Source: a virus
Direction: 5' to 3' (one strand)
Virus record (IMG/VR): IMGVR_UViG_3300018476_000007
Coordinates: 1 to 43,036 of that record
DNA length: 43,036 nucleotides
The position numbers were made by a program, and so were the translations under genes. How positions within the stretch are numbered: position 1 is the stretch's first letter; each line of letters starts with the position of its first letter. Below are positions 4,509-43,036 of this stretch, piece after piece. Under the pieces are notes generated by a model. The model ran no database searches, was not told the origin of the DNA, and saw only the letters and a list, made by a program, of their open reading frames with translations.

Positions 4509-7016
4509 ATGAGCAACTTCGGAAGATACGTTCCGGGTTATGGATCCATCGGCGCAAAATTATGCATCGTTGGTATAGCTCCAGGTCAAGAAGAAGTTAC
4601 TGCTGGGCGTCCGTTTGTAGGTCCAAGTGGTAATATTCTAAGGCGAGACTTGGCTGAAGCAGGAGTTAATCTAGACGATTGTTACAGGACTAATGTATTC
4701 AAATACAAATTACCTGATAATGATTTTGCGAAGTTTAAGGAAATGGGATTATCCTTACCTGCTGCAATGGATGATCTAGTGACAGAGATACTATCACTTA
4801 ATCCTAACTGCATATTGGGATTAGGAGATCCTGTTCTATATGCACTAGCTGGTAAGCATGGTAAGTATAATAATATTGGAGTTTGGAGAGGTAGTATTCT
4901 CCCAGTAATGGATCGTAAGGCAGTATTTACTTGGCATCCTGCCGCTGAATTACATGGCTCAGGCGAAGGAACATTCGCTAGCTGGCAGAAATATGTAAGG
5001 AAGTTTGATATTAAGCGAGCAGTTGAGGAAAGTAAAACTACTAGATATGATGTTCCACATAGATTAGTTCGGATAGCTAGAACAAGTGCCGATCTATATA
5101 GATTCATAGAAGAGAATATCAACGAAGAATTTGTTGCGCTTGATATTGAATCCATTGAGTCCATTCCAGTTTGTCTCGGACTAAGTTTTAAATCATATGA
5201 GGCGATGGTAGTTCCCTTGTGGAATACATTGCCCATTGATGTACTGAATCATAAGAAGCCTAAGAAAACTTATAAGTATGATCTCCGAGTTTCGGATATT
5301 CCAAACGATGATTTAGGATATGTTTGGAAAATGTTAGGCCTATTCCTTTTGAATCAACTATCCTTCAAAGGAAGGAAGATTAACTTCAAGAAGATAGGAC
5401 AGAACTTCAAGTACGACGAAGCTAAATTAAATAATCTGGGCTTCTATCTTGATGAACTATTCTGGGACTTGATGATTAGTGCTCATGCTATCAGTCCTGA
5501 AATGCCTAAAGGATTAGCATTCAATACAAGCATTAAAACTAGAGAGCCATATTATAAGTTTGAAGGTAGGGAGTTTATTCCTCAGCGGGATTCCATTGAA
5601 ACTTTCTTTAACTACAATGGTAAAGATGCCTGCGTTTCTAGGGAATTATTCGATAGTGACTACGCTGAATTAAGCTCTATTAAGTATGGAATAGAACACG
5701 CTACGTGGAGAATGCAATTACATAAAGCTTACATGCAAGTGGATGATGTAGGTTTTAAGACTGACGAATTGCAGAGAAAGGATCTAATGGTCAAGTATGT
5801 AAATAGACTAGTAGATCTAGAAGTAGAACTCTTTGAGTTGTGCAAGGAATTTGGAGTAGAAGAACCAGTTAATGTACGCTCGCACCCTCAAGTAAATCGT
5901 CTTATTTATGTTACTCTTAATGTACCCGTTAGAGCCGGTACTGGTGAGCAAGTATTAACCGGACTACTGGCTAATGTAATTAAAGATAAACGGAAGAAGA
6001 GAATCTGTGAATTAATCCTTGAGATTAGGAGAGTTGATAAGACGTTAGGATATCTGAAGGCAGAACCCGATTATGATGGTAGGATGAAAACTACATTCCT
6101 TATCACGGGAACTGAAAACTTCAGGACATCTACTAACGTATTAGAACCTCCCATTAGACCTACCCAAGTAGGTTGGGCATTCCAGACTGTTACTAAACAC
6201 GGTGATGTAGGGCAGGATTTAAGATCTATTCTAGTAGCAGATCGTGGTTATGTCATAGTTAACATAGATCAATCTCAGGCAGAGGCTAGAGTCTGTTCTC
6301 TATTAGCAGGAGATGAAGATAAACTCTTAGCCTATGATACTAGAGATGTCCATGCTGAAACAGCAGCTAAGTTCTTTTCTGTTAAGCCAGAACAATTCAG
6401 TAAGAAACTATTAGGTTACGAATGTGCAGAGCGTTTCGTAGGTAAGACACTAAGACATGCCTTTCACTTAGGTATTGGAAAAAGAGAGGCAATGATTAAT
6501 GTCAATACTGATGCGCGCAAGTATAAGATTGACATTAACATTAGTGAATGGTTCGCACAGAAATGTCTTAATGCACTTGAATTAGATACACCTAAAATTC
6601 CTAAGGTGTTTCATGAAACTATTAAAGAACTTCTATATAACGATCGTAGATTATTTGGAACCTATGGAGCCTCCCGTTACTTTTACGATGATGAAGGATC
6701 AGATCTGTGGAAGGGTGGATATTCATTCATTCCTCAACAGACGGTTAGTGATAAGACTAAGCACGTCCTATTAAAGATTGTTAAACATCTATGGGATGTT
6801 AAGGTAGTAGTAGAATCTCACGATGCATTAGCAATGTTGATTCGTGAGAAGGTAGTAGAAGAACGGATAGAAGAAATTCAATCTTGGTTTAGTGAGCCTA
6901 TTGATTTCTCTCGTTGCTCGATTCCAAGAAGAAGTTTAGTAATACCAACTGATGTAGAAATCGGTTACAACTATAAAGAACTTAAGAACTTCAGTAGGAA
7001 ATTGATGGTGGCCTAA
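4509..7016 (+). CDS. Family-A DNA polymerase with 3'-5' exonuclease domain and an N-terminal uracil-DNA-glycosylase-like domain
   Basis: UDG-like motifs: GIAPGQEE, PFVGPSGNIL and HPAAE. Exo I: ALDIES. Pol motif A NIDQSQAEARV, motif B RFVGKTLRHAFHLG, motif C ESHDA. Confidence 0.85.
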   Translation: MSNFGRYVPGYGSIGAKLCIVGIAPGQEEVTAGRPFVGPSGNILRRDLAEAGVNLDDCYRTNVFKYKLPDNDFAKFKEMGLSLPAAMDDLVTEILSLNPNCILGLGDPVLYALAGKHGKYNNIGVWRGSILPVMDRKAVFTWHPAAELHGSGEGTFASWQKYVRKFDIKRAVEESKTTRYDVPHRLVRIARTSADLYRFIEENINEEFVALDIESIESIPVCLGLSFKSYEAMVVPLWNTLPIDVLNHKKPKKTYKYDLRVSDIPNDDLGYVWKMLGLFLLNQLSFKGRKINFKKIGQNFKYDEAKLNNLGFYLDELFWDLMISAHAISPEMPKGLAFNTSIKTREPYYKFEGREFIPQRDSIETFFNYNGKDACVSRELFDSDYAELSSIKYGIEHATWRMQLHKAYMQVDDVGFKTDELQRKDLMVKYVNRLVDLEVELFELCKEFGVEEPVNVRSHPQVNRLIYVTLNVPVRAGTGEQVLTGLLANVIKDKRKKRICELILEIRRVDKTLGYLKAEPDYDGRMKTTFLITGTENFRTSTNVLEPPIRPTQVGWAFQTVTKHGDVGQDLRSILVADRGYVIVNIDQSQAEARVCSLLAGDEDKLLAYDTRDVHAETAAKFFSVKPEQFSKKLLGYECAERFVGKTLRHAFHLGIGKREAMINVNTDARKYKIDINISEWFAQKCLNALELDTPKIPKVFHETIKELLYNDRRLFGTYGASRYFYDDEGSDLWKGGYSFIPQQTVSDKTKHVLLKIVKHLWDVKVVVESHDALAMLIREKVVEERIEEIQSWFSEPIDFSRCSIPRRSLVIPTDVEIGYNYKELKNFSRKLMVA

Positions 7017-7845: not shown

Positions 7846-9051
7846 GTGGACCTAATAGAAGAAGTCTTAGAGTCCACTAATACTTTTGAGGCTCCAAAGA
7901 GATTCTACTATTGGTCAACTCTAGCAGCTATCAGTGCGGTAATGAAGGATCATGTATGGTTCGATATGGCGGGGAATTATCTGCTACATCCAAACATCTA
8001 CGTTCTTCTTTATGGTCCATCTGGTATCAGAAAAGGGCCACCTATTGCATTAGCTCAGGAGTTAGTTACTCTTGTTGATAATACTAGAGTGATCGACGGA
8101 CGATCTTCGATTGAAGCTGTCATTAAAGAACTTGGGACTTTCACAACAAGAGAAGGTAAAGCACCACTAAAAGATTCGTGCGGATTCATGGTTGCCTCTG
8201 AATTGTCTAGTTCGATTGTAGGAAACAATTCAGCTATGGATATCATGACTAATCTATACGACAGACAGTATAACACCAATGAATGGAAGTATAGATTAAA
8301 GGTATCTGAATCCGCACGACTCTTAAAGCCTACCATTACTTGGCTATCAGGGACTAATGAAGCATTGTTCAGAGACTTCATGCCTGAGAAGAATTTAAAT
8401 GGTGGATTGATTGGTAGGATGTTTGTTATCAGTGAGCATCAGAAGCAACAGACTAACTCCCTGATGTTCAGAACTAAGGCACCTGATAAGAACAAGATAG
8501 CAGAAGGACTTCTAGAAATTGCTAAGATTAAGGGCGAATTTACAATGGAGCATGATGTAAGATTAGCCCTTGATGGATGGTATCAGAAGTTCGATAAAGA
8601 AGTAGCTCCTACTTTAAATGATGATACGGGATTCGTAAGTAGGATGCTAGACTTCGTTATCAAAGTTGCTATGATAATTGCAGTGGGAAGAAGGGGATCT
8701 AGAGTACTTATCATTGATGATATTCTTGAGGGAATTAAAGTGGTTAATCCACTGATTGTTCCCACTAAGAAAGTAGTCAATTCAGTTAAGAGAACTGATA
8801 ACTCTCTGATAACTAAGCGGGCGCAAGTTTTAACTTATCTTAGTGCTCAGCCAGAATACAAGGCTGAAAGAGGTAAGTTGCTTCAAAATCTGGGACTTCA
8901 GATTGACCATGAAGACTTAGATAAGATTGCTCAGTTTATGATACAGATGAATGTCTTAACGATAGACAGTCACGGTGGATCTGTATCGTATAGACTGAGA
9001 GTTGATAGACCTGAAGTTGTAGATTGGTTGAAGAATTACAGATCAAAGTGA
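7846..9051 (+). CDS. P-loop NTPase, SF3-helicase-like layout with a degenerate Walker A
   Basis: LLYGPSGIRKGP is Walker-A-like but lacks GK[ST]. GFMVASEL is Walker-B-like, and WLSGTNE is motif-C-like. The three elements are spaced about 50 aa apart. GTG start. Confidence 0.5.
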   Translation: MDLIEEVLESTNTFEAPKRFYYWSTLAAISAVMKDHVWFDMAGNYLLHPNIYVLLYGPSGIRKGPPIALAQELVTLVDNTRVIDGRSSIEAVIKELGTFTTREGKAPLKDSCGFMVASELSSSIVGNNSAMDIMTNLYDRQYNTNEWKYRLKVSESARLLKPTITWLSGTNEALFRDFMPEKNLNGGLIGRMFVISEHQKQQTNSLMFRTKAPDKNKIAEGLLEIAKIKGEFTMEHDVRLALDGWYQKFDKEVAPTLNDDTGFVSRMLDFVIKVAMIIAVGRRGSRVLIIDDILEGIKVVNPLIVPTKKVVNSVKRTDNSLITKRAQVLTYLSAQPEYKAERGKLLQNLGLQIDHEDLDKIAQFMIQMNVLTIDSHGGSVSYRLRVDRPEVVDWLKNYRSK

Positions 9052-25468: not shown

Positions 25469-26672
25469 ACACCTGTCGAGTTGTAAGGTTTTCCTTCTTA
25501 GCTCTCTCTACGGTCATCTTACCGCCCTTGGATCCTCCCTTATGTTCTCCACCTCCAGAGATTCTAGTAGGATCCTTCTTATCTTTTTCTTCCTTACCAT
25601 CACTCTTGCCAAGTGTTTCTTTTCTCACTTCGGCCCTAACTTTAGGTATAAGAGTCTTAGCCTTAGCCAGAAACAATGCAAGAAACGCACTCTTATGCGC
25701 TCCAGAGAAACCGTTCCTCTGTTCTTTTTTCCAATTAGCATTCATTCTCCCCAGATAGAGGGAGTCTTGATCCATCTGTTCGAGAATTTTGCCTCTTACT
25801 TCCTTAGAAATAATCTTCCTTAGTCCAGGCTGCTTAGCTAAATCTTCCAATCCTTTACTAATTTCAGTATCAAGAGCATCATAACAGGTCTTAGTTACTT
25901 CTCCTGCCAATGCCTTATACTTACCGGCAAAATAATTAGCCTTATCTCTTTCTACAGTCTCGTCCTTAGGAGTCCTAGAGCCATTTACTAATGAGACTTC
26001 ACCTTCAATATCCTCGTAAGCTCCACCGAATAGAATCTTATGGACGATCTTGGCGGCGTTCTTAATGTTTTCGTCTTTACCTTTATCACCGTGATTATAA
26101 ACATTCTTAATAAACTGCTGAACTTCTGGAGCTACGATATCAAAATATAAACCTTTATCAAGTTCTTTTACTGCGGGTATGAAATTGCCACTAAATGTCT
26201 TAAGGGATTCATCTCCCTCACCTTTAAGTTCAGTAAGAAATCTACCAGCATCTCCTGCTACAATGGCAGCAGTAATATCATTATATGCATTCTCAATCTC
26301 AGCAGCCTTCCTAGCATCTTCTACCGTAGGAAAGATTTCAGAGAATTGCTGCTCACGGAAAAAAGCGTGTTTAAGATCTGGGAAGTCCTTAAAGAATTGA
26401 GGATACTTTCCCTTAATATCCTTAAACTCTACACGAGTAAGAACTGGATCTTCTTCTTCCTTCTTATCCTTTTCTTCGCCTTCTTCATCTTCTTCTTTAT
26501 CTTCTTCATCATCTTCCTTATCTTCCTTATCTTCTTCTTCTTCTCCTTCTTCCTCTTCTTCATCATCCTTTTCATCAAGGTTGACTTCGGGTTCATCAGT
26601 CATAATCCCGCCAGAACTATCTGCGGGAGCGAGCAATAGAATGAATTTATCTAGCAGGGAATTGCGCAACAT
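25458..26672 (-). CDS. Scaffolding protein (404 aa) with a long acidic tract
   Basis: Lies between the portal and capsid genes. It has a D/E run (DEKDDEEEEEGEEEEDKEDKEDDEEDKEEDEEGEEKDKKEEED) and is helical and charged. An AAGGAG SD sits 6 nt upstream, inside the end of the portal gene. Confidence 0.65.
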   Translation of the reverse strand: MLRNSLLDKFILLLAPADSSGGIMTDEPEVNLDEKDDEEEEEGEEEEDKEDKEDDEEDKEEDEEGEEKDKKEEEDPVLTRVEFKDIKGKYPQFFKDFPDLKHAFFREQQFSEIFPTVEDARKAAEIENAYNDITAAIVAGDAGRFLTELKGEGDESLKTFSGNFIPAVKELDKGLYFDIVAPEVQQFIKNVYNHGDKGKDENIKNAAKIVHKILFGGAYEDIEGEVSLVNGSRTPKDETVERDKANYFAGKYKALAGEVTKTCYDALDTEISKGLEDLAKQPGLRKIISKEVRGKILEQMDQDSLYLGRMNANWKKEQRNGFSGAHKSAFLALFLAKAKTLIPKVRAEVRKETLGKSDGKEEKDKKDPTRISGGGEHKGGSKGGKMTVERAKKENLTTRQVFDD

Positions 26673-33022: not shown

Positions 33023-33051
33023 AGTATAACACAGTCCGAACCGTTTGTCAA
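33023..33051 (-). promoter_or_regulatory. sigma70-type promoter facing the - arm (TTGACA-N17-TATACT with an extended TGT)
   Basis: The reverse complement of 33021-33055 reads ccggTTGACAaacggttcggactgtgtTATACTtt. It lies about 150 nt upstream of the ATG at 32867. Confidence 0.6.
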
Positions 33052-33118
33052 CCGGCCCAAATTTCGACCAATTCGATGCACTCAGTTCTCTAATTTTTAA
33101 AATTCCCTAAATTTTTTT

Positions 33119-33153
33119 ATTAGGTACTTATCCTAAAATCATTAGGTACTTAT
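33119..33153. repeat. 13-bp direct repeat ATTAGGTACTTAT x2 (period 22 bp) next to an A/T tract
   Basis: Copies at 33119-33131 and 33141-33153. Preceded by taatttttaaaattccctaaattttttt. Confidence 0.8.
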
Positions 33154-33191
33154 ATTTTTAGGACACTTAAGCTTGGGGTTAGTTTCACCTC

Positions 33192-33207
33192 CGCAAATAT
33201 TGTGCCA
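33192..33207 (-). promoter_or_regulatory. sigma54-type -24/-12 element facing left: TGGCACAATATTTGCG
   Basis: Exact TGGCAC-N5-TTGC with GG-N10-GC spacing on the - strand. Confidence 0.45.
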
Positions 33208-33237
33208 TGTAAAATTTCTGTAAAGGGCATATGGGGG

Positions 33238-33507
33238 TGGCATTATTATTGCATTAGCATGATTCATGCCAGATAATCGTGTAAGTATTATACAGCGCAT
33301 AAATCATGCCATATAAAAACCGTGTAAAAAATACAGGTATGATCCTTGCATTAGCATAGTTCGTGCCATAATATTGGTATGATCTATGCCGTATAAGAAT
33401 ACTGATTAAAGTCTTGGCATGTTCTATGTGGGATTAGATTAGTTGTAAGCTTTACAAGAATTGTAAGAGTTACAAGTAAGATTTACAAATATGCATAATT
33501 CGTGCCA
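33238..33507. repeat. Array of 16-nt TGGCAYGnnnnWTGC motifs in both orientations
   Basis: Minus-strand copies: 33256-33271 TGGCATGAATCATGCT; 33296-33311 TGGCATGATTTATGCG; 33353-33368 TGGCACGAACTATGCT; 33492-33507 TGGCACGAATTATGCA. Plus-strand copies: 33238-33253 TGGCATTATTATTGCA; 33335-33350 AGGTATGATCCTTGCA; 33375-33390 TGGTATGATCTATGCC; 33415-33430 TGGCATGTTCTATGTG. Further copies lie at 33624-33639 and 34483-34498. Confidence 0.85.
33443..33476. repeat. Two tandem 16-bp near-palindromes TTGTAAGnnTTACAAG (period 18 bp); operator-like
   Basis: ttgtaagctttacaag at 33443-33458 and ttgtaagagttacaag at 33461-33476. TTGTAA and TTACAA are reverse complements of each other. Confidence 0.75.
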
Positions 33508-33689
33508 TATCATATTCTTAGATTGTTAGACTTTCTTCTAGTATTCTCAGTATTCTTAGAAGGATCATAGTAGGGCATATAACCTAACTCCTTTAGAATC
33601 AACAACTTACGAGATTTATAAGTTGGCATATAGTATGTATTAGTATAGGATTGCGTAGCTTACCTGCTACCAGGGAGCCAAACCTAATT

Positions 33690-33705
33690 TGGCACGGCGG
33701 TTGCT
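33690..33705 (+). promoter_or_regulatory. Canonical sigma54-type -24/-12 element facing right: TGGCACGGCGGTTGCT
   Basis: Matches TGGCACG-N4-TTGCW exactly. The predicted start is near 33716, at the 5' edge of the hairpin-dense segment. Confidence 0.5.
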
Positions 33706-33715
33706 ATAGTATAGG

Positions 33716-34280
33716 CTACGGGAGGAATGAAACGATAGAGTAAAAACTACACGATTCGAGGTCACGTTTAATGAGTGTATGACCTTGTATCCACAGCGTT
33801 TCGGCGCAGGCCACGATTTACTCGTGTGTTAGTGAGATACTAAATAGACTCTGGCGTTCAACATCCGCGCATATGATTATGCGACAGGTTGCGAGGTAGA
33901 TAATTCTACAGAATCTCAAAGCCGTGCAAAATCTGAAAATGCTTTCGAGCATAATGGTAAGCGGATGATATCAATAGGATGGTTCTTACAAAATCATCCG
34001 AGTGCCAAGGGGGAGTTAGTCTCCCATCCTATACATGCACGGCGATGCAGAAACAGTATGCAAGATAACACTGCTATAGCTGATAAGGAATTAGGGTGGA
34101 AGTAGTGATTAGGCGAAAGCTTATAACTCTCAATACACTATAAATACAAAAGATTTGACAGAGCCTAAATTGTGCGGGCAAGAGTGAGCGCATTAGGTTC
34201 TATCAAATATCATTCTAATCGAATTATGCTTCTCACCATTGAGAGGGATATTCGATAAGGGCTAAGCGATTAATTTCCTT
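33716..34280 (+). ncRNA. Candidate large structured RNA or structured leader (unclassified)
   Basis: No ORF of 60 aa or more. Hairpins whose loops are special only on the + strand: AUGCU-UUCG-AGCAU at 33939-33952 and UAGGC-GAAA-GCUUA at 34110-34123. Other hairpins: CGCAUA-UGAU-UAUGCG at 33868-33883; GUAGA/UCUAC at 33896-33909; GGGAG/CUCCC at 34011-34025. An 8-bp stem pairs 33962-33969 with 33993-34000. Its loop UAGGAUGG (33975-33982) is complementary to CCAUCCUA (34024-34031). Boundaries are approximate. Confidence 0.35.
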
Positions 34281-34296
34281 ATAAGGAGTTAATCCC

Positions 34297-34559: not shown

Positions 34560-34588
34560 TTGACATGGGGTATTCATTGTGATACAAT
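34560..34588 (+). promoter_or_regulatory. Consensus sigma70 promoter TTGACA-N17-TACAAT with an extended -10 (TGA)
   Basis: ccctTTGACAtggggtattcattgtgaTACAATc, about 60 nt upstream of the ATG at 34650. Confidence 0.7.
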
Positions 34589-35237: not shown

Positions 35238-35296
35238 TATTCTAAGGATTATCAACTGGTATAGGCCAGTATAAACAGGTCTTAAGCCTATAGCGT

Positions 35297-35339
35297 TTAG
35301 TTGGCTGGCTAGTTCGTATGTAATTAGTCAGTCAACTAA
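35297..35339 (+). other. Long intergenic RNA hairpin (11 bp + 6 bp, three G.U pairs valid only on the + strand)
   Basis: UUAGUUGGCUG-g-CUAGUU-cguaugu-AAUUAG-u-CAGUCAACUAA. It ends 46 nt before the ATG at 35386. Confidence 0.5.
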
Positions 35340-35902: not shown

Positions 35903-36063
35903 TAATCAAATTCAAGCAATGCAAGGGGTGTAGGAAACAAGCAGCGCCATTGAGTAAGAAGTTTAATGGAGTCCTCCTTTGCTTTTCCTGTATTAGCAAG
36001 CTGAAGAAAATCACTGAGCAACTTTGCGAATTGCAGGAGAATAATGCAACTAAAGCATCTTAA
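35899..36063 (+). CDS. Small zinc-ribbon protein (54 aa), below the track cutoff
   Basis: The GTG overlaps the previous TGA (GTGA). Product IIKFKQCKGCRK...LLCFSCISK has two CxxC pairs. Confidence 0.5.
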   Translation: MIIKFKQCKGCRKQAAPLSKKFNGVLLCFSCISKLKKITEQLCELQENNATKAS

Positions 36064-36117
36064 GTAGTCTAAGCTTAAGATTCGACTTGATAAGAGGTAG
36101 AGAATCAGTCTTGATTC

Positions 36118-36170
36118 GGTCGAAAGACAGTCGAGAAACGGTCGAGAAATGGTTGAGCTTTGGTCGAATG
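36118..36170. repeat. Five tandem iterons, unit GGTCGAGAAAn, period exactly 11 bp
   Basis: GTCGA occurs at 36119, 36130, 36141 and 36163, with GTTGA at 36152. An inverted copy TCGAC lies at 36082-36086. The palindrome GAATCAgtctTGATTC lies at 36102-36117. Confidence 0.8.
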
Positions 36171-36212
36171 GAATCAGGGTTAACTCATTCAATCAAAAGC
36201 AGTTAAAGGAAA

Positions 36213-36426
36213 CCCCCTCCCTCTCCCCTAGCATACCCTCCCATACCCTCTAGTGTCCCCTATAGTGGTCACGGTGCTGTTGTTCTTATATTAGTAATAA
36301 TAAAAAATACTAAGAAGAATAACACTCTACCACAAGGAGTGTCCTCTAAAGGATACACTTGACAGGCTCCATAGGGGTGTGATACACTCCAAGGGGGAGA
36401 GGGGGAGGGGTATGCTAGAGGTATCG
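36213..36426. repeat. Imperfect inverted repeat with a C-run left arm and a G-run right arm, enclosing an AT-rich core and a promoter
   Basis: The left arm ccccctccctctcccctagcataccctcccataccctctag (36213-36253) is partly complementary to the right arm gggggagagggggaggggtatgctagaggtat (36393-36424). For example, ctagcataccctccc pairs with gggaggggtatgctag. An inner pair is cccctatagtgg with ccatagggg. The core 36281-36325 is A/T-rich. Confidence 0.65.
36359..36388 (+). promoter_or_regulatory. sigma70-type promoter TTGACA-N18-TACACT (extended TGA)
   Basis: cacTTGACAggctccataggggtgtgaTACACTcc. The octamer GATACACT occurs twice (36352-36359 and 36381-36388), flanking the -35 and overlapping the -10. 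Confidence 0.55.
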
Positions 36427-36789
36427 CGTAAAGCCTTTAAAATCAAGAGGATACAGCAATTACCGCCCGCTGATACCTCTACCAAAACTGAACCATTCCT
36501 CGACCGTCCCTCTACCGCGCCTGAACCGGCACTCGACCGAATTTATACTAACTTCAAGGGTGGGCTAATTCAATTACTTCTCCCAATTATAAAGGAAGGA
36601 AATGGAATAACAGCAGGTGAAATTAATAATGAATTAAGGAAAGTGATTAAGAGGAAGAAATTTTATAATCCTCCTGACTTAAGCACGACGGGATATATCA
36701 GCTCTCATCTAAAATTGTTAGTTGATAGAGGAATTCTTGTGAGAGTGAAAATTAATAAGGTCTATCACTATTATCTTAGGGTTGATTAA
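36412..36789 (+). CDS. Winged-helix DNA-binding protein (125 aa); candidate iteron-binding/initiator or regulator
   Basis: The ATG follows a G-rich SD, and the listed GTG at 36379 lies inside the promoter. The C-terminus (ITAGEINNELRK...HLKLLVDRGILVRVKINKVYHYYL) is wHTH-like. The coding sequence contains two inverted iteron copies, CTCGACCG at 36499 and 36532. Confidence 0.6.
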   Translation: MLEVSRKAFKIKRIQQLPPADTSTKTEPFLDRPSTAPEPALDRIYTNFKGGLIQLLLPIIKEGNGITAGEINNELRKVIKRKKFYNPPDLSTTGYISSHLKLLVDRGILVRVKINKVYHYYLRVD

Positions 36790-36913: not shown

Positions 36914-37093
36914 ATGGAACTATCAATGAATATCGTCAAGGTCGAAAAGTTCCCCAATCTATACGATGTTATGGAAGAGGGATTCAGTATTTTTCGAGGG
37001 ACTTATACTAACTGCCTAGTAGTAGTTGGTGGATTAACTCTCTACCCCGATAAGAAGATTGATGAAATCTTCAAGATGACTGAGACAGAGTAA
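36914..37093 (+). CDS. Small early protein (59 aa), below the track cutoff
   Basis: AGGAGG SD 8 nt upstream. Product MELSMNIVKVEKFPNLYDVMEEGFSIFRGTYTNCLVVVGGLTLYPDKKIDEIFKMTETE. TAATG overlap with the next gene. Confidence 0.6.
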   Translation: MELSMNIVKVEKFPNLYDVMEEGFSIFRGTYTNCLVVVGGLTLYPDKKIDEIFKMTETE

Positions 37094-37383
37094 TGCAAGA
37101 ATTTACTCCAAGAGAAAAGAAGCATCTTTACTTTGCAATTGCCAAGGTAATGAGCGTATTGAAACATCTGGATACGTTTACTCTTGAAGAACTCGAGAAT
37201 CACATCCGTAAGATAGACCAAATGGATGTGAACCATGTAGTTAAGGAACTACTAGCACTTGGAGTTCTTGAGAAAGATGAGACTGACCTTTATAGTTGGG
37301 TCGGAACAGACCATCTAGTTCGGGAAGTAAGTGTAACGGAAGTAAACATAGTAAAGAAGAAGCTCCTTAATGAGGAGAATTAA
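37093..37383 (+). CDS. Winged-helix-like DNA-binding protein (96 aa)
   Basis: LEELENHIRKIDQMDVNHVVKELLALGVLEKDETDLYSW. Confidence 0.55.
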   Translation: MQEFTPREKKHLYFAIAKVMSVLKHLDTFTLEELENHIRKIDQMDVNHVVKELLALGVLEKDETDLYSWVGTDHLVREVSVTEVNIVKKKLLNEEN

Positions 37384-38857: not shown

Positions 38858-40876
38858 ATGGTAAGACAAATAGACGCACAAGATATGTGCGACATAGATC
38901 TCCGTAAATATGGACTATGGGAAAAGGGTTGGCGCACTAACTTTACTAAGGTAACAGGATACATTGCACTCTGTGACCATACTAACAAGCGTATCATTAT
39001 CAGCATTCCTCACCTTAATGCTAGGAGTGAGGCGGAATTGATGGATACTATTCGTCATGAGATTGCTCATGCATTGGTTGGTCATGGGCATGGACATAAT
39101 GCAATCTGGCAGGCTAAAGCTATTGAGCTTGGAGCTAAGCCAGTTCACTGTGCGCCTAGTAATGTTAATGCAGGACAAGCTCTTAATGTAGTTGAGACTA
39201 AGCCGGAGAAAAAGATTAAGGCTCTCAATAATTATTGTCCGGTCTGCTTTGCAGTTGCAGTAACTAAGAGTCAGATTACTAAGAAGGATATCATTACTGG
39301 GTATCCTAAGATTCTAATGACTCTTGAGTGTGGACATACAATTGAGAAGGATCAAATCAAGTCCGCGCTCGATGATATCAAAGTATGGACTAGCACCACA
39401 GGTAAGCAAGTATTTCCTTATCAAGTGGATGGTATTAAGTTCATTGCAGAAGCTAACGGGCGTTGTCTAATTGCAGATGAACCGGGATTAGGTAAAACTA
39501 TTCAAGCTCTGGGCGCGCTCAAGTTCTATCCTGAAATGCGTCCTGCACTGTGGGTATGCAAGACTACACTTAGACTCCAAGCTTTGAAAGAAGCTATTGA
39601 TTGGTGTGGTCCTGAGATGATGGGACAGATTATTGAGCATGGTAAGATGTTTATCATGCCCAATCTGAATCTTTACATTGTCTCTATGGATTTGCTGAGG
39701 AATATTCCTACTGAAAAGTTGGAAGAGATTCCTTATAAGACTATCATTGCAGATGAGATTCAGCACTTCAAGAATCCAGACAGTTCTAGGACCGCAGAAC
39801 TTAGGAAGCTTGTTAGTCGAGCGGAATACTTTATCCCCCTATCAGGAACACCTTGGAAGAATAGAGGTAGTGAATACTATCCAGTGCTTAACATGCTTAA
39901 GCCTGAGATGTTCCCAAGTCCTAAGCATTTCAAGAATGTTTGGGTTGACCAGTATCTTGATAAGGATACAGGCAAGTATCGAGAGGGTGGTATCCGTAAT
40001 ATCCCTGCGTTTAGAGAGAAGACTAAAGGCTTTATCATTAGGCGCATGAGGGATGATGTTCTTCCTGACCTACCTAAGATTAACAGGAAGATTCGTTTCG
40101 TAGATATGGATGCACTCTATCAGAAGTCATATGATAAGAGTGAGTCCAAGGTAGCTGAGATGATTAAAGCTGCAATGATTGACGGCAGACCTATGAAGGA
40201 TATTGCCGCTATGATTATGCAGCTTAAGCATATCACTGGTCTTGCTAAAGTTCGTGCTCTAGTTGATGATGCACAGGAATGGATTGAGAATGTTCCTGAT
40301 GAATTCGAGAAGCTTACAATCTTTCATCACCACATTGATGTTGGTAATAACATTCAGGATGGTAATGCTGGAGAGTATGAAGGACTTGATAATTGGCTAG
40401 TGAAGAATGGGTATAACAAATCCCTTAGACTTTTCGGAGGAAAGAGTGGAGAGGAAAGGGATAATGTTATCAACGAATTCAAGAAGGATAAGCGTAATAG
40501 GATTCTCATAGGCTCTACCTTAGCTAGTGGTGAAGGACTTAACATTCAGTTCTGTCAACATGCATTCATGCTAGAGAGACAGTGGAATCCACAGAATGAG
40601 GAACAAGCTGAGTTGAGATTCAGCAGACCTCTTACTAAGAATGACCTACCTGAATACTTGCATCCTATTGCAGAACGTCAGGTGAGTATTGATATTCCTT
40701 ACTTCATTGCAGCTGGAACGGTAGATGAAATTCTTACTAACATTGTGGAAAGGAAGAGACTAAACTTCCGGCGCTCGATGAATGTGAAGGATATTAATCT
40801 AACGTGGGACGAGAACGAAATTATCCGGGAAGTTAGTGAAGAGATTATCAAGCGCCGTTATAAGAAGACGGCTTAA
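38858..40876 (+). CDS. SprT-like zinc metalloprotease domain + zinc ribbon + SNF2-family helicase fusion (672 aa)
   Basis: HEIAHALVGHGHGHNAIW (HExxH, SprT-like). CPVC...ECGH. SNF2 motif I ADEPGLGKT, motif II ADEIQHFKN, motif III LSGTPWKN. C-terminal helicase motifs STLASGEGLNIQ and QAELRFSR. Confidence 0.8.
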   Translation: MVRQIDAQDMCDIDLRKYGLWEKGWRTNFTKVTGYIALCDHTNKRIIISIPHLNARSEAELMDTIRHEIAHALVGHGHGHNAIWQAKAIELGAKPVHCAPSNVNAGQALNVVETKPEKKIKALNNYCPVCFAVAVTKSQITKKDIITGYPKILMTLECGHTIEKDQIKSALDDIKVWTSTTGKQVFPYQVDGIKFIAEANGRCLIADEPGLGKTIQALGALKFYPEMRPALWVCKTTLRLQALKEAIDWCGPEMMGQIIEHGKMFIMPNLNLYIVSMDLLRNIPTEKLEEIPYKTIIADEIQHFKNPDSSRTAELRKLVSRAEYFIPLSGTPWKNRGSEYYPVLNMLKPEMFPSPKHFKNVWVDQYLDKDTGKYREGGIRNIPAFREKTKGFIIRRMRDDVLPDLPKINRKIRFVDMDALYQKSYDKSESKVAEMIKAAMIDGRPMKDIAAMIMQLKHITGLAKVRALVDDAQEWIENVPDEFEKLTIFHHHIDVGNNIQDGNAGEYEGLDNWLVKNGYNKSLRLFGGKSGEERDNVINEFKKDKRNRILIGSTLASGEGLNIQFCQHAFMLERQWNPQNEEQAELRFSRPLTKNDLPEYLHPIAERQVSIDIPYFIAAGTVDEILTNIVERKRLNFRRSMNVKDINLTWDENEIIREVSEEIIKRRYKKTA

Positions 40877-42773: not shown

Positions 42774-43036
42774 ATGCCTAGAATTGACGTTATCACGGGG
42801 GAGCTTATCCGGGATGAAGTTCCAATCGAAAGTATTAGACTTCCGGAAGTTACGACAGACGTTGTTTCTAAAGAAGCTATGGAACCCGTCCAAGAAACAA
42901 CAGGAGTTTCTGAAACAATCTCAAGCGGAGTTACTAAGGAAATCACAAGAGACAAATGGACAAACATCCAAGTAGATAGTCAAGTACTATCCTTGTTCAT
43001 GGCTTGTCCTCGGAAGTATGAGTATGTAATGAAGAG
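42774..43036 (+). CDS. N-terminal part of the Cas4/RecB-like exonuclease (continues at base 124 of the window after the wrap)
   Basis: The ATG at 42774 opens a frame (MPRIDVITGELIRDEVPIE...SLFMACPRKYEYVMK) that runs off the window end without a stop. It is in phase with 80..901 once the 42,913-bp offset is applied. Confidence 0.75.
   Translation, partial: MPRIDVITGELIRDEVPIESIRLPEVTTDVVSKEAMEPVQETTGVSETISSGVTKEITRDKWTNIQVDSQVLSLFMACPRKYEYVMK
42914..43036. repeat. Terminal duplication, right copy (identical to 1-123)
   Basis: Direct comparison of the two window ends. Confidence 0.9.

Follow-up and report, generated by a model that had tools for sequence, protein, structure and literature searches.

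The viral record IMGVR_UViG_3300018476_000007 holds the complete genome of an uncultured phage of ~42.9 kb (~42,913 bp); the 43,036-nucleotide (nt) stretch that was analysed, positions 1 to 43,036 of that record, is referred to below as the window. Within its block of replication genes lies a module composed of two arrays of short, helically phased repeats (iterons), the core between them, and the gene for a 125-amino-acid (aa) protein with a predicted winged helix. A 54-aa zinc-ribbon gene, whose stop is at 36063, lies upstream of the module. A first-pass annotation, made from the sequence alone, had read positions 36064-36540 as a replication origin in the style of lambda O or plasmid Rep. 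The principal elements that it named were all recovered here, and its reading as an origin is supported in part. From left to right, the parts of the module are:

36096-36172, plus strand: left iteron array, seven 11-bp-phased units of the GGTNNAG type
36162-36184, plus strand: conserved box GGTCGAATGGAATCAGGGTTAAC, at the inner end of the left array and in phase with the variable iterons
36213-36250, plus strand: C-rich tract, containing 1.9 copies of CATACCCTCC and complementary to the G-rich leader
36253-36272, no strand: palindrome A, GTGTCCCCTATAGTGGTCAC, one mismatch from the conserved TGTC-N10-GACA site
36281-36325, no strand: AT-rich core, 80-85% A+T
36339-36358, no strand: palindrome B, GTGTCCTCTAAAGGATACAC, abutting the -35 hexamer
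36359-36388, plus strand: sigma70-type promoter, TTGACA-18-TACACT with a TG extension
36390-36411, plus strand: G-rich leader, aaGGGGGagaGGGGGaGGGGt, holding the Shine-Dalgarno sequence GGAGG
36412-36789, plus strand: gene for the 125-aa protein, ATG start preceded by GGAGG
36477-36538, minus strand: right iteron array, inside the gene, with six units at 11-bp phasing in the opposite orientation to the left array (CTNNACC)

Two iteron arrays and the core between them

The cores of the left array are GGTAGAG (36096), AGTCTTG (36107), GGTCGAA (36118), AGTCGAG (36129), GGTCGAG (36140), GGTTGAG (36151) and GGTCGAA (36162). Five of these, with an exact period of 11 bp, had been recognised in the first-pass annotation and were recovered here (starts 36118/36119, 36129/30, 36140/41, 36151/52 and 36162/63), in agreement with the call made by Tandem Repeats Finder (36117-36157, period 11, 3.7 copies); a register search extended the array by two further units to the left (36096 and 36107), for a total of seven. 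The palindrome GAATCAgtctTGATTC, described earlier as a lead-in to the array, is present at 36102-36117 and overlies a degenerate in-phase unit. The TCGAC at 36082, taken earlier for an inverted copy, is a lone 5-mer, out of phase and indistinguishable from chance. The right array lies ~320 bp from the left, in the opposite orientation, and reads on the plus strand CTCTACC, CTGAACC, CTCGACC, twice over; the two inverted copies of CTCGACCG already reported inside the gene (36499 and 36532) are two of its six units. It sits in the 5' coding region of the 125-aa gene, where it codes for an 11-aa peptide repeat (TSTKTEPFLDR/PSTAPEPALDR).

Chance or low complexity was rejected as an explanation for the arrays, since both the motif statistics and the periodicity rank lie far beyond shuffles and the rest of the genome. 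Only three copies of GGTCGAG are present in the 43 kb, every one within the module region. The paired motif GGTNNAG-N4-GGTNNAG, with up to one mismatch, has 11 matches genome-wide (8 of them in the arrays) against 1.6 expected, a count that none of 100 shuffles reached. Of all 66-nt windows of the genome, the two with the strongest 11/22-nt periodicity are the arrays; their lag-11 identities are 0.69 and 0.62, and the combined lag-11/lag-22 score averages 0.256 across the genome (sd 0.048). Because periodicity at these lags is not a coding signal, the constraint on the intragenic array acts on the DNA.

Between the arrays, the C-rich tract and the G-rich leader mirror one another: CATACCCTCC is the reverse complement of GGAGGGTATG, the sequence that spans Shine-Dalgarno, spacer and start. 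These tracts had been called homopyrimidine and homopurine; they are C-rich and G-rich, as described, and not strictly pure. The proposed A/T-rich core is well founded, in that just one 40-mer of the genome is less stable than 36283-36322. Also present are the sigma70-type promoter and both of the GATACACT octamers said to bracket it, one being the right half of palindrome B and the other the -10 region. Only three TTGACA-N16-18-TAnnnT sites occur genome-wide, all between 33.0 and 36.4 kb: 33023-33051 (minus strand), 34560-34588 (plus) and 36359-36388 (plus). All three are TG-extended, with a similar TGTGaTAcA -10 region, and their sequences suggest transcription of all three units by the host RNA polymerase with sigma70/sigmaA. 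The promoter at 36359 (P36359) is the last of them before the replication genes, and the rest of the replication block has none. Upstream, no terminator was found. Structured RNA was not detected in 36064-36540, either by Rfam (no match at E<=1 or at the gathering threshold) or by ARAGORN (no tRNA match). A leftward promoter in the left arm was considered and rejected, because palindrome A and the complementary-strand G-rich tract leave no room for it.

The winged-helix protein and its relatives

The open reading frame (ORF) finder had placed the start of the gene at GTG 36379, giving a 136-aa form; this is not the start, because the codon falls inside the promoter. Modelled by AlphaFold2 (AF2) from its single sequence, the protein gave an unusable result (predicted local distance difference test, pLDDT, 41). 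With a six-sequence alignment, residues 50-125 were modelled as an H-b-H-H-b-b winged helix at pLDDT 80-90, in keeping with the fold assigned in the first-pass annotation, and residues 1-50 were predicted to be disordered. Foldseek matched the model to generic winged-helix DNA binders (ArsR, BlaI/MecI, MarR, PadR), none with E below 7e-3; the centromere protein AspA was a weak match at rank 38. Profile searches of Protein Data Bank (PDB) sequences and Pfam gave sub-threshold winged-helix matches only, the best in Pfam being Penicillinase_R (E=0.022, sub-threshold, in three of six family members). Because these matches are generic and sub-threshold, they support the description as a winged helix and not membership of a named family. 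For ArsR/SmtB, BlaI/MecI and MarR in particular, matches stayed below threshold, and the putative sites are phased tandem repeats rather than a single palindrome. Neither the 136-aa form, the 125-aa form nor the six family members matched Phage_rep_O or Phage_rep_org_N in Pfam, and a tblastn search of the 125-aa protein against 72,556 plasmids gave no match even at E<=1.

A word-indexed protein search returned only the query; an exhaustive search recovered four relatives (P0002, P0003, P0004 and P0007). Contigs were retrieved via these encoded relatives, and one more locus, L162, came from a scan for the promoter pattern, which otherwise returned mostly unrelated promoters (L073, L088 and L162 were its only family members). 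Seven independent metagenome loci were compared: the window, L001/L006, L002, L003, L004, L005 and L162. The anatomy of the module, its conservation, and the co-variation of arrays with protein are established by sequence and this comparison. The order of elements is common to all seven loci: 11-bp iterons, conserved box, C-rich tract, palindrome and AT-rich core, followed by a second palindrome abutting TTGACA, the -10 region, the G-rich leader, the start codon and the inverted intragenic iterons, which fall within the first ~50 codons in every case. The promoter is TTGACA-17/18-TGnTAnnnT in all loci, and the conserved box, likewise found in all, has the consensus GGTCGArNNNAATCrrGGyTAAg. The AT-rich core keeps its composition (45-70 bp, >=80% A+T) and not its sequence. 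The TGTC-N10-GACA site occurs twice per locus, flanking the AT-rich core, and in most relatives nowhere else; L162 has a third copy at 720-737, ~1.5 kb upstream. Because the sequence of this 18-bp palindrome is kept while the iterons vary, it is probably read by a different, conserved factor.

The iteron cores differ from locus to locus: GGTCGAG in the window, CTGGTAG in L002, TTGATTC in L003, TTGGT in L005, CCGGTC in L162 and TtTGrwT in L001. Within each locus, the intragenic array is nonetheless the reverse complement of the upstream array, L004 being a weak case. When left arrays were matched by k-mers to reverse-complemented right arrays, the diagonal dominated, and the true pairing was the single best of 5040 permutations at k=5, 6 and 7. 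The arrays share a core of 4-9 of the 11 positions, leaving the spacers free, which fits protein-binding sites and not a continuous duplex. The peptide repeats encoded by the intragenic array also differ in sequence in each relative. The repeats, which are phased, unique to the locus, fixed in position in all seven loci and co-variant with the winged-helix gene, qualify operationally as iterons, and on the presence of iterons the first-pass annotation is upheld. The winged-helix protein of the window is 40-45% identical to its L003 and L002 counterparts, whereas the flanking proteins (195 aa, 233 aa and SNF2) show identities of 77-89%; it is the sole fast-evolving gene that always adjoins the arrays. 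L001 and L005, with similar iterons, also have the most similar protein N-termini, of a distinct kind. Taken together, the matching of left and right arrays, the rate of divergence, the agreement of subgroups and the constraint at the DNA level make a strong inferential case that the arrays are cognate sites of the 125-aa protein, which on these grounds probably binds the iterons.

A second small, fast-evolving protein (96 aa, 37093-37383, plus strand) lies nearby and is 36% identical to its L003 counterpart. Its winged-helix matches were all sub-threshold (DUF4423, Mnd1 HTH, and Phage_rep_O at E=0.036, under the cut-off). It was rejected as reader of the iterons, as tblastn found no match to it in L002 or L006. 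GGGAG-type purine repeats, which include the Shine-Dalgarno sequence, are conserved across loci along with the complementary C-rich tract upstream. The suggestion that these tracts form G-quadruplex or H-DNA proved weak and was rejected as a conserved feature: G-quadruplex prediction found a canonical motif in only three of nine loci (L001, L004 and L088), and the tracts are impure.

Around the module, the genome has a simple plan. Nucleotides 1-123 are identical to 42914-43036, so the window is a complete circular or terminally redundant genome, and an exonuclease ORF is continuous across the junction. Structural genes, among them the large terminase subunit (TerL) and the major capsid protein, occupy the minus strand at 9.4-32.9 kb. 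The plus-strand block runs from ~33 kb over the junction to 9.4 kb and includes genes for a SprT-SNF2 helicase, a PD-(D/E)XK exonuclease, an AAA_24 ATPase, a fusion of uracil-DNA glycosylase (UDG) with PolA (4509-7016), and a DUF3987 primase/helicase (7846-9051). No integrase, repressor or partition NTPase was detected in the complete genome by scans of the Pfam/PHROGs type, and no close relatives were found among cultured phages, plasmids or reference genomes (GTDB; 185,579 reference genomes). The phage is probably virulent.

Several other features of the genome deserve mention. Two of the replication proteins are unusual fusions, one of a uracil-DNA-glycosylase-like domain with a family A DNA polymerase (4509-7016, plus strand), the other of a SprT-like metalloprotease domain with an SNF2 helicase (38858-40876, plus strand). 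A Pistol self-cleaving ribozyme (Rfam RF02679; 41.3 bits against a gathering score of 34.5) lies at 35255-35306 on the plus strand, in the early operon just 3' of the 195-aa gene. On the minus strand at 26449-26576, inside a 404-aa gene, is a tandem array of the TCT/CTT trinucleotide type (period 3 and 21, ~38 copies), the product of which is presumably an acidic, Glu-Lys-rich stretch of low complexity.

Possible roles: replication origin, operator or segregation site

From its sequence, the region is most plausibly a replication origin that is also autoregulated, a reading that we hold tentatively, at a little short of even confidence. The events would unfold as follows: the strong promoter at 36359 would produce the 125-aa winged-helix protein, which would bind GGTNNAG cores, one per helical turn. 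Two filaments of opposite polarity, each on one face of the helix, would form on the left array (36096-36172) and on the array within the disordered-linker codons of the protein's own gene, bracketing a dyad-symmetric core of C-rich tract, palindrome, AT-rich core, palindrome, promoter and G-rich leader. This complex, together with the negative supercoiling behind RNA polymerase as it leaves the promoter, would open the AT-rich core, where the helicase-primase (7846-9051) and PolA (4509-7016) could then be loaded. Once occupied, the intragenic array would also exert feedback on the gene in which it lies.

What makes an origin plausible is the arrangement itself: cognate iterons in opposite orientation stand on both sides of a conserved AT-rich segment of low stability, the recognition gene adjoins and partly overlaps the element, the module lies in the replication block, and the strong promoter fires away from the AT-rich core. 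Each aspect has some precedent. In the origins of staphylococcal pathogenicity islands (SaPIs), a winged helix recognises iterons that lie to either side of an AT-rich region and face opposite ways (PMC9371898); in lambda, the origin is contained in the O gene, and O becomes longer where iterons are added (PMC7466680); and in archaea, origin recognition boxes stand on both sides of an AT-rich unwinding element (PMC5333045). That binding leads to melting of an origin we infer with less support than the binding itself.

Several observations weigh against an origin at this site. GC skew shows no step at 36.3 kb and follows the direction of transcription; its cumulative minimum falls at ~33 kb, where that direction switches. 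No DnaA box was found in 36000-36600 at <=1 mismatch. The 125-aa protein is small and unrelated to known initiators, with no match to Rep initiator families (Rep_3/RepA type); it fits no initiator family, and a single winged helix was modelled where the Rep_3/RepA class would have two in tandem. The arrays of L004 are poorly defined. There are also two alternative candidates elsewhere: a repeat-rich, non-coding region of ~1.2 kb at 33.05-34.3 kb (33050-34290), and the least stable 40-mer of the genome (2802-2841, 88% A+T). Lastly, because P36359, as one of three canonical promoters, probably feeds the whole replication operon, regulation alone could explain the module.

The first of these alternative regions, 33050-34290, coincides with the strand switch and with the minimum of the cumulative GC skew, and holds a 20-bp motif, GCATARTTCRTGCCATATAA, in four direct copies (33257, 33297, 33354 and 33493; 0.01 expected), along with degenerate and inverted copies of the same motif, three copies of GTAAGNTTTACAA and two of ATTAGGTACTTAT. 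No copy of the 10-nt core of GCATARTTCRTGCCATATAA (TYRTGCCRTA) was found in the related loci. The region could be a cluster of early promoters or a rival origin candidate. The 40-mer at 2802-2841 sits between genes of the replication block, in a short gap (region 2770-2940) where no iterons were seen.

A more ambitious version of the origin reading, which strikes us as improbable, is that the module represents an undescribed type of phage origin with modular specificity, in which a fixed dyad-symmetric core is combined with a diversifying winged-helix "specificity subunit" on two convergent filaments. Conserved factors would read the core, and initiation would be specific to each phage and would limit itself; supercoiling, or a primer in the form of an R-loop, may come from transcription of the G-rich leader.

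Transcriptional control without any origin is the main and a serious rival, which we consider somewhat less likely than an origin. The winged-helix protein, product of the first gene of a ~16-kb replication operon, would shut off its own promoter through cooperative coating of the arrays, by way of a ~360-bp loop or a roadblock at +65 to +130, and the shut-off would be delayed and ultrasensitive. The AT-rich core would supply bendability only, and the palindromes would be operators of a second, conserved regulator. The promoter is well suited to such control, as one of only three consensus TG-extended promoters with no other downstream in the replication block, and the arrays flank it much as the R1 parC operators, two sets of five 11-bp iterons, stand at the par promoter (PMC2241845). 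The closest structural matches of the protein are repressors (ArsR, BlaI/MecI and MarR), the iterons occur at no other promoter, so that it would be a dedicated autoregulator, and its divergent specificity would also be expected from competition between co-infecting relatives. However, the arrays are distant from the promoter and do not overlap it (~-190 to -265 and +85 to +145 relative to the inferred start), a self-regulator with 11-13 sites would be elaborate, and simple autoregulation has no need of dyad symmetry or of a conserved tract of 45-70 bp and >=80% A+T between palindromes. In another reading the module would be a segrosome site that resembles a centromere (ParR-parC or TubR-tubC type): a small centromere-binding protein would coat the phased iterons around its own promoter and so segregate a plasmid-like prophage or replicating genomes. 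The AT-rich core and palindromes would have no role in such a site. Such a site does have models in R1 parC, with its iteron sets around an autoregulated promoter (PMC2241845), and in tubC of the c-st prophage, a split iteron centromere lying over part of the promoter and bound by the small TubR (PMC6009700), and AspA is among the weak structural matches. Yet the complete genome has no detected gene for ParA, ParM, a TubZ-like protein or another motor, nor any lysogeny functions; relatives are absent from the 185,579 reference genomes and the plasmid collections searched; and the arrays are inverted, with one of them intragenic. We regard a segregation site as very unlikely.

An explanation at the level of RNA is hardly more probable. 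In transcripts that read through from upstream, the C-rich tract would pair with the G-rich leader and hide the Shine-Dalgarno sequence and AUG, and the left array may pair with the right, so that only transcripts from the internal promoter would be translated; the fold-back inhibition of IS10 is the comparison. A fold of 36200-36430 does pair the C-rich tract with the Shine-Dalgarno sequence and AUG (-87.5 kcal/mol, z = -4.3). The predicted partner of this segment in the long transcript includes the C-rich tract in all six loci tested, and is that tract alone in the window, L002, L004 and L001. In five of the six, the segment has a lower probability of being unpaired in the long than in the short transcript; in L001 the two values are the same (0.43 vs 0.43). 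RNAalifold also recovers the helix of C-rich tract and leader, and the failure to find an upstream terminator favours read-through. However, cognate duplexes of tract and leader are no better than non-cognate ones (1343 of 5040 permutations were as good), and RNAalifold gave a covariation term of +1.56, with no locus-specific covariation. An 11-nt periodicity would be purposeless in a stem, and the arrays share cores rather than spacers; pairing would at most account for the C- and G-rich tracts and not for the whole module.

Two further candidates were tried and rejected. An invertible promoter between inverted repeats would leave no leftward genes to drive, the repeats are imperfect, and no recombinase was detected. 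A pac site with a small terminase would lie ~4.5 kb from TerL, on the other strand and inside the replication block; a separate 166-aa gene lies upstream of TerL.

The phage belongs to a clade without cultured relatives, in which most early genes are unannotated, and the co-evolving pair of cis-element and protein provides an entry point to the control centre of the genome, in seven natural variants. If the module is an origin, its architecture of inverted, contiguous, helically phased iterons, with one array in the coding region of a disordered linker, would be new, and would show the specificity of an origin diversifying around an unchanging core. As a regulator, the module would be the counterpart in a phage of the operator logic of parC/ParR, minus the segregation motor. 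In either case, the seven iteron-protein pairs form a natural data set on how a small winged helix alters its recognition as the target DNA changes.

Comparison with known systems

An element made of iterons, an AT-rich core and a specific winged-helix reader is of a kind already known. We found no described counterpart for the layout, in which two inverted, contiguous 11-bp arrays ~320 bp apart surround a dyad-symmetric core with the operon promoter, and one of the arrays occupies the codons of a disordered linker.

ParR, the binding protein of the R1 parC/ParR system, is a ribbon-helix-helix (RHH) protein. At parC, as in our module, the operon for a small binding protein has a promoter with contiguous 11-bp iterons on both sides, there in two sets of about five, and ParR binds them cooperatively, along one face of the DNA, with autoregulatory effect (PMC2241845). 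The parC repeats are all direct and 39 bp apart, whereas those described here are inverted, ~320 bp apart and in one case intragenic. Assignment to type II (ParMRC) fails on the predicted winged helix in place of RHH, on the inverted iterons and on the lack of any detected actin-like or motor gene. Of the traits of type III (TubZRC) systems, a winged helix and iterons near the promoter are present in the module; TubR was not among the top 50 structural matches, and no tubulin-like gene was detected in Pfam/PHROGs scans of the genome. Archaeal oriC combines an AT-rich unwinding element, flanked by repeats that are bound through a winged-helix domain, with an adjacent gene for the binding protein (orc1/cdc6). 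Orc1/Cdc6, however, is an AAA+ protein from a different domain of life, its origin recognition boxes are longer and dispersed, and the 125-aa protein has no AAA+ module. The iterons of iteron plasmids are ~17-22 bp long and spaced at about two helical turns, in contrast to the contiguous 11-bp repeats found here.

Among lambdoid phages, O specificity co-varies with ori. Ori-lambda resembles the module in having iterons inside the gene of the binding protein, near an AT-rich tract, such that iteron number alters the length of the protein, and in lying downstream of a strong early promoter (PMC7466680). In having one array in the protein's own gene, the module recalls lambda O, one of the styles proposed in the first-pass annotation; homology to lambda O or plasmid Rep is not detectable, and the layout departs from that of lambda. 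The lambda iterons are direct, ~19 bp long and four to six in number, and form a single cluster that has the AT-rich tract to one side and no inverted array or internal promoter, as against two inverted, contiguous 11-bp arrays here. In the module, the AT-rich core is found ~150 bp upstream of the gene, on the far side of the promoter; the intragenic array is the one at 36477-36538. Lambda O itself has ~300 aa and a P-binding C-terminal domain; the 125-aa protein has no Phage_rep_O match.

The origin and Rep of SaPIs are similar in several respects: short iterons are read by a winged-helix domain, half of them lie on each side of an AT-rich region in opposite directions, the origin adjoins the recognition gene, and both iteron sequence and protein specificity vary between elements (PMC9371898). 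In SaPIs, however, the winged helix forms the C-terminal part of a larger protein, a hexameric SF3/MCM-like helicase, and iterons of 5-6 nt lie downstream of rep. Here the winged-helix protein is free-standing, with 125 aa; the units are contiguous, 11 bp long and 11-13 in total; one array is intragenic; and a promoter, two palindromes and the C- and G-rich tracts lie between the arrays.

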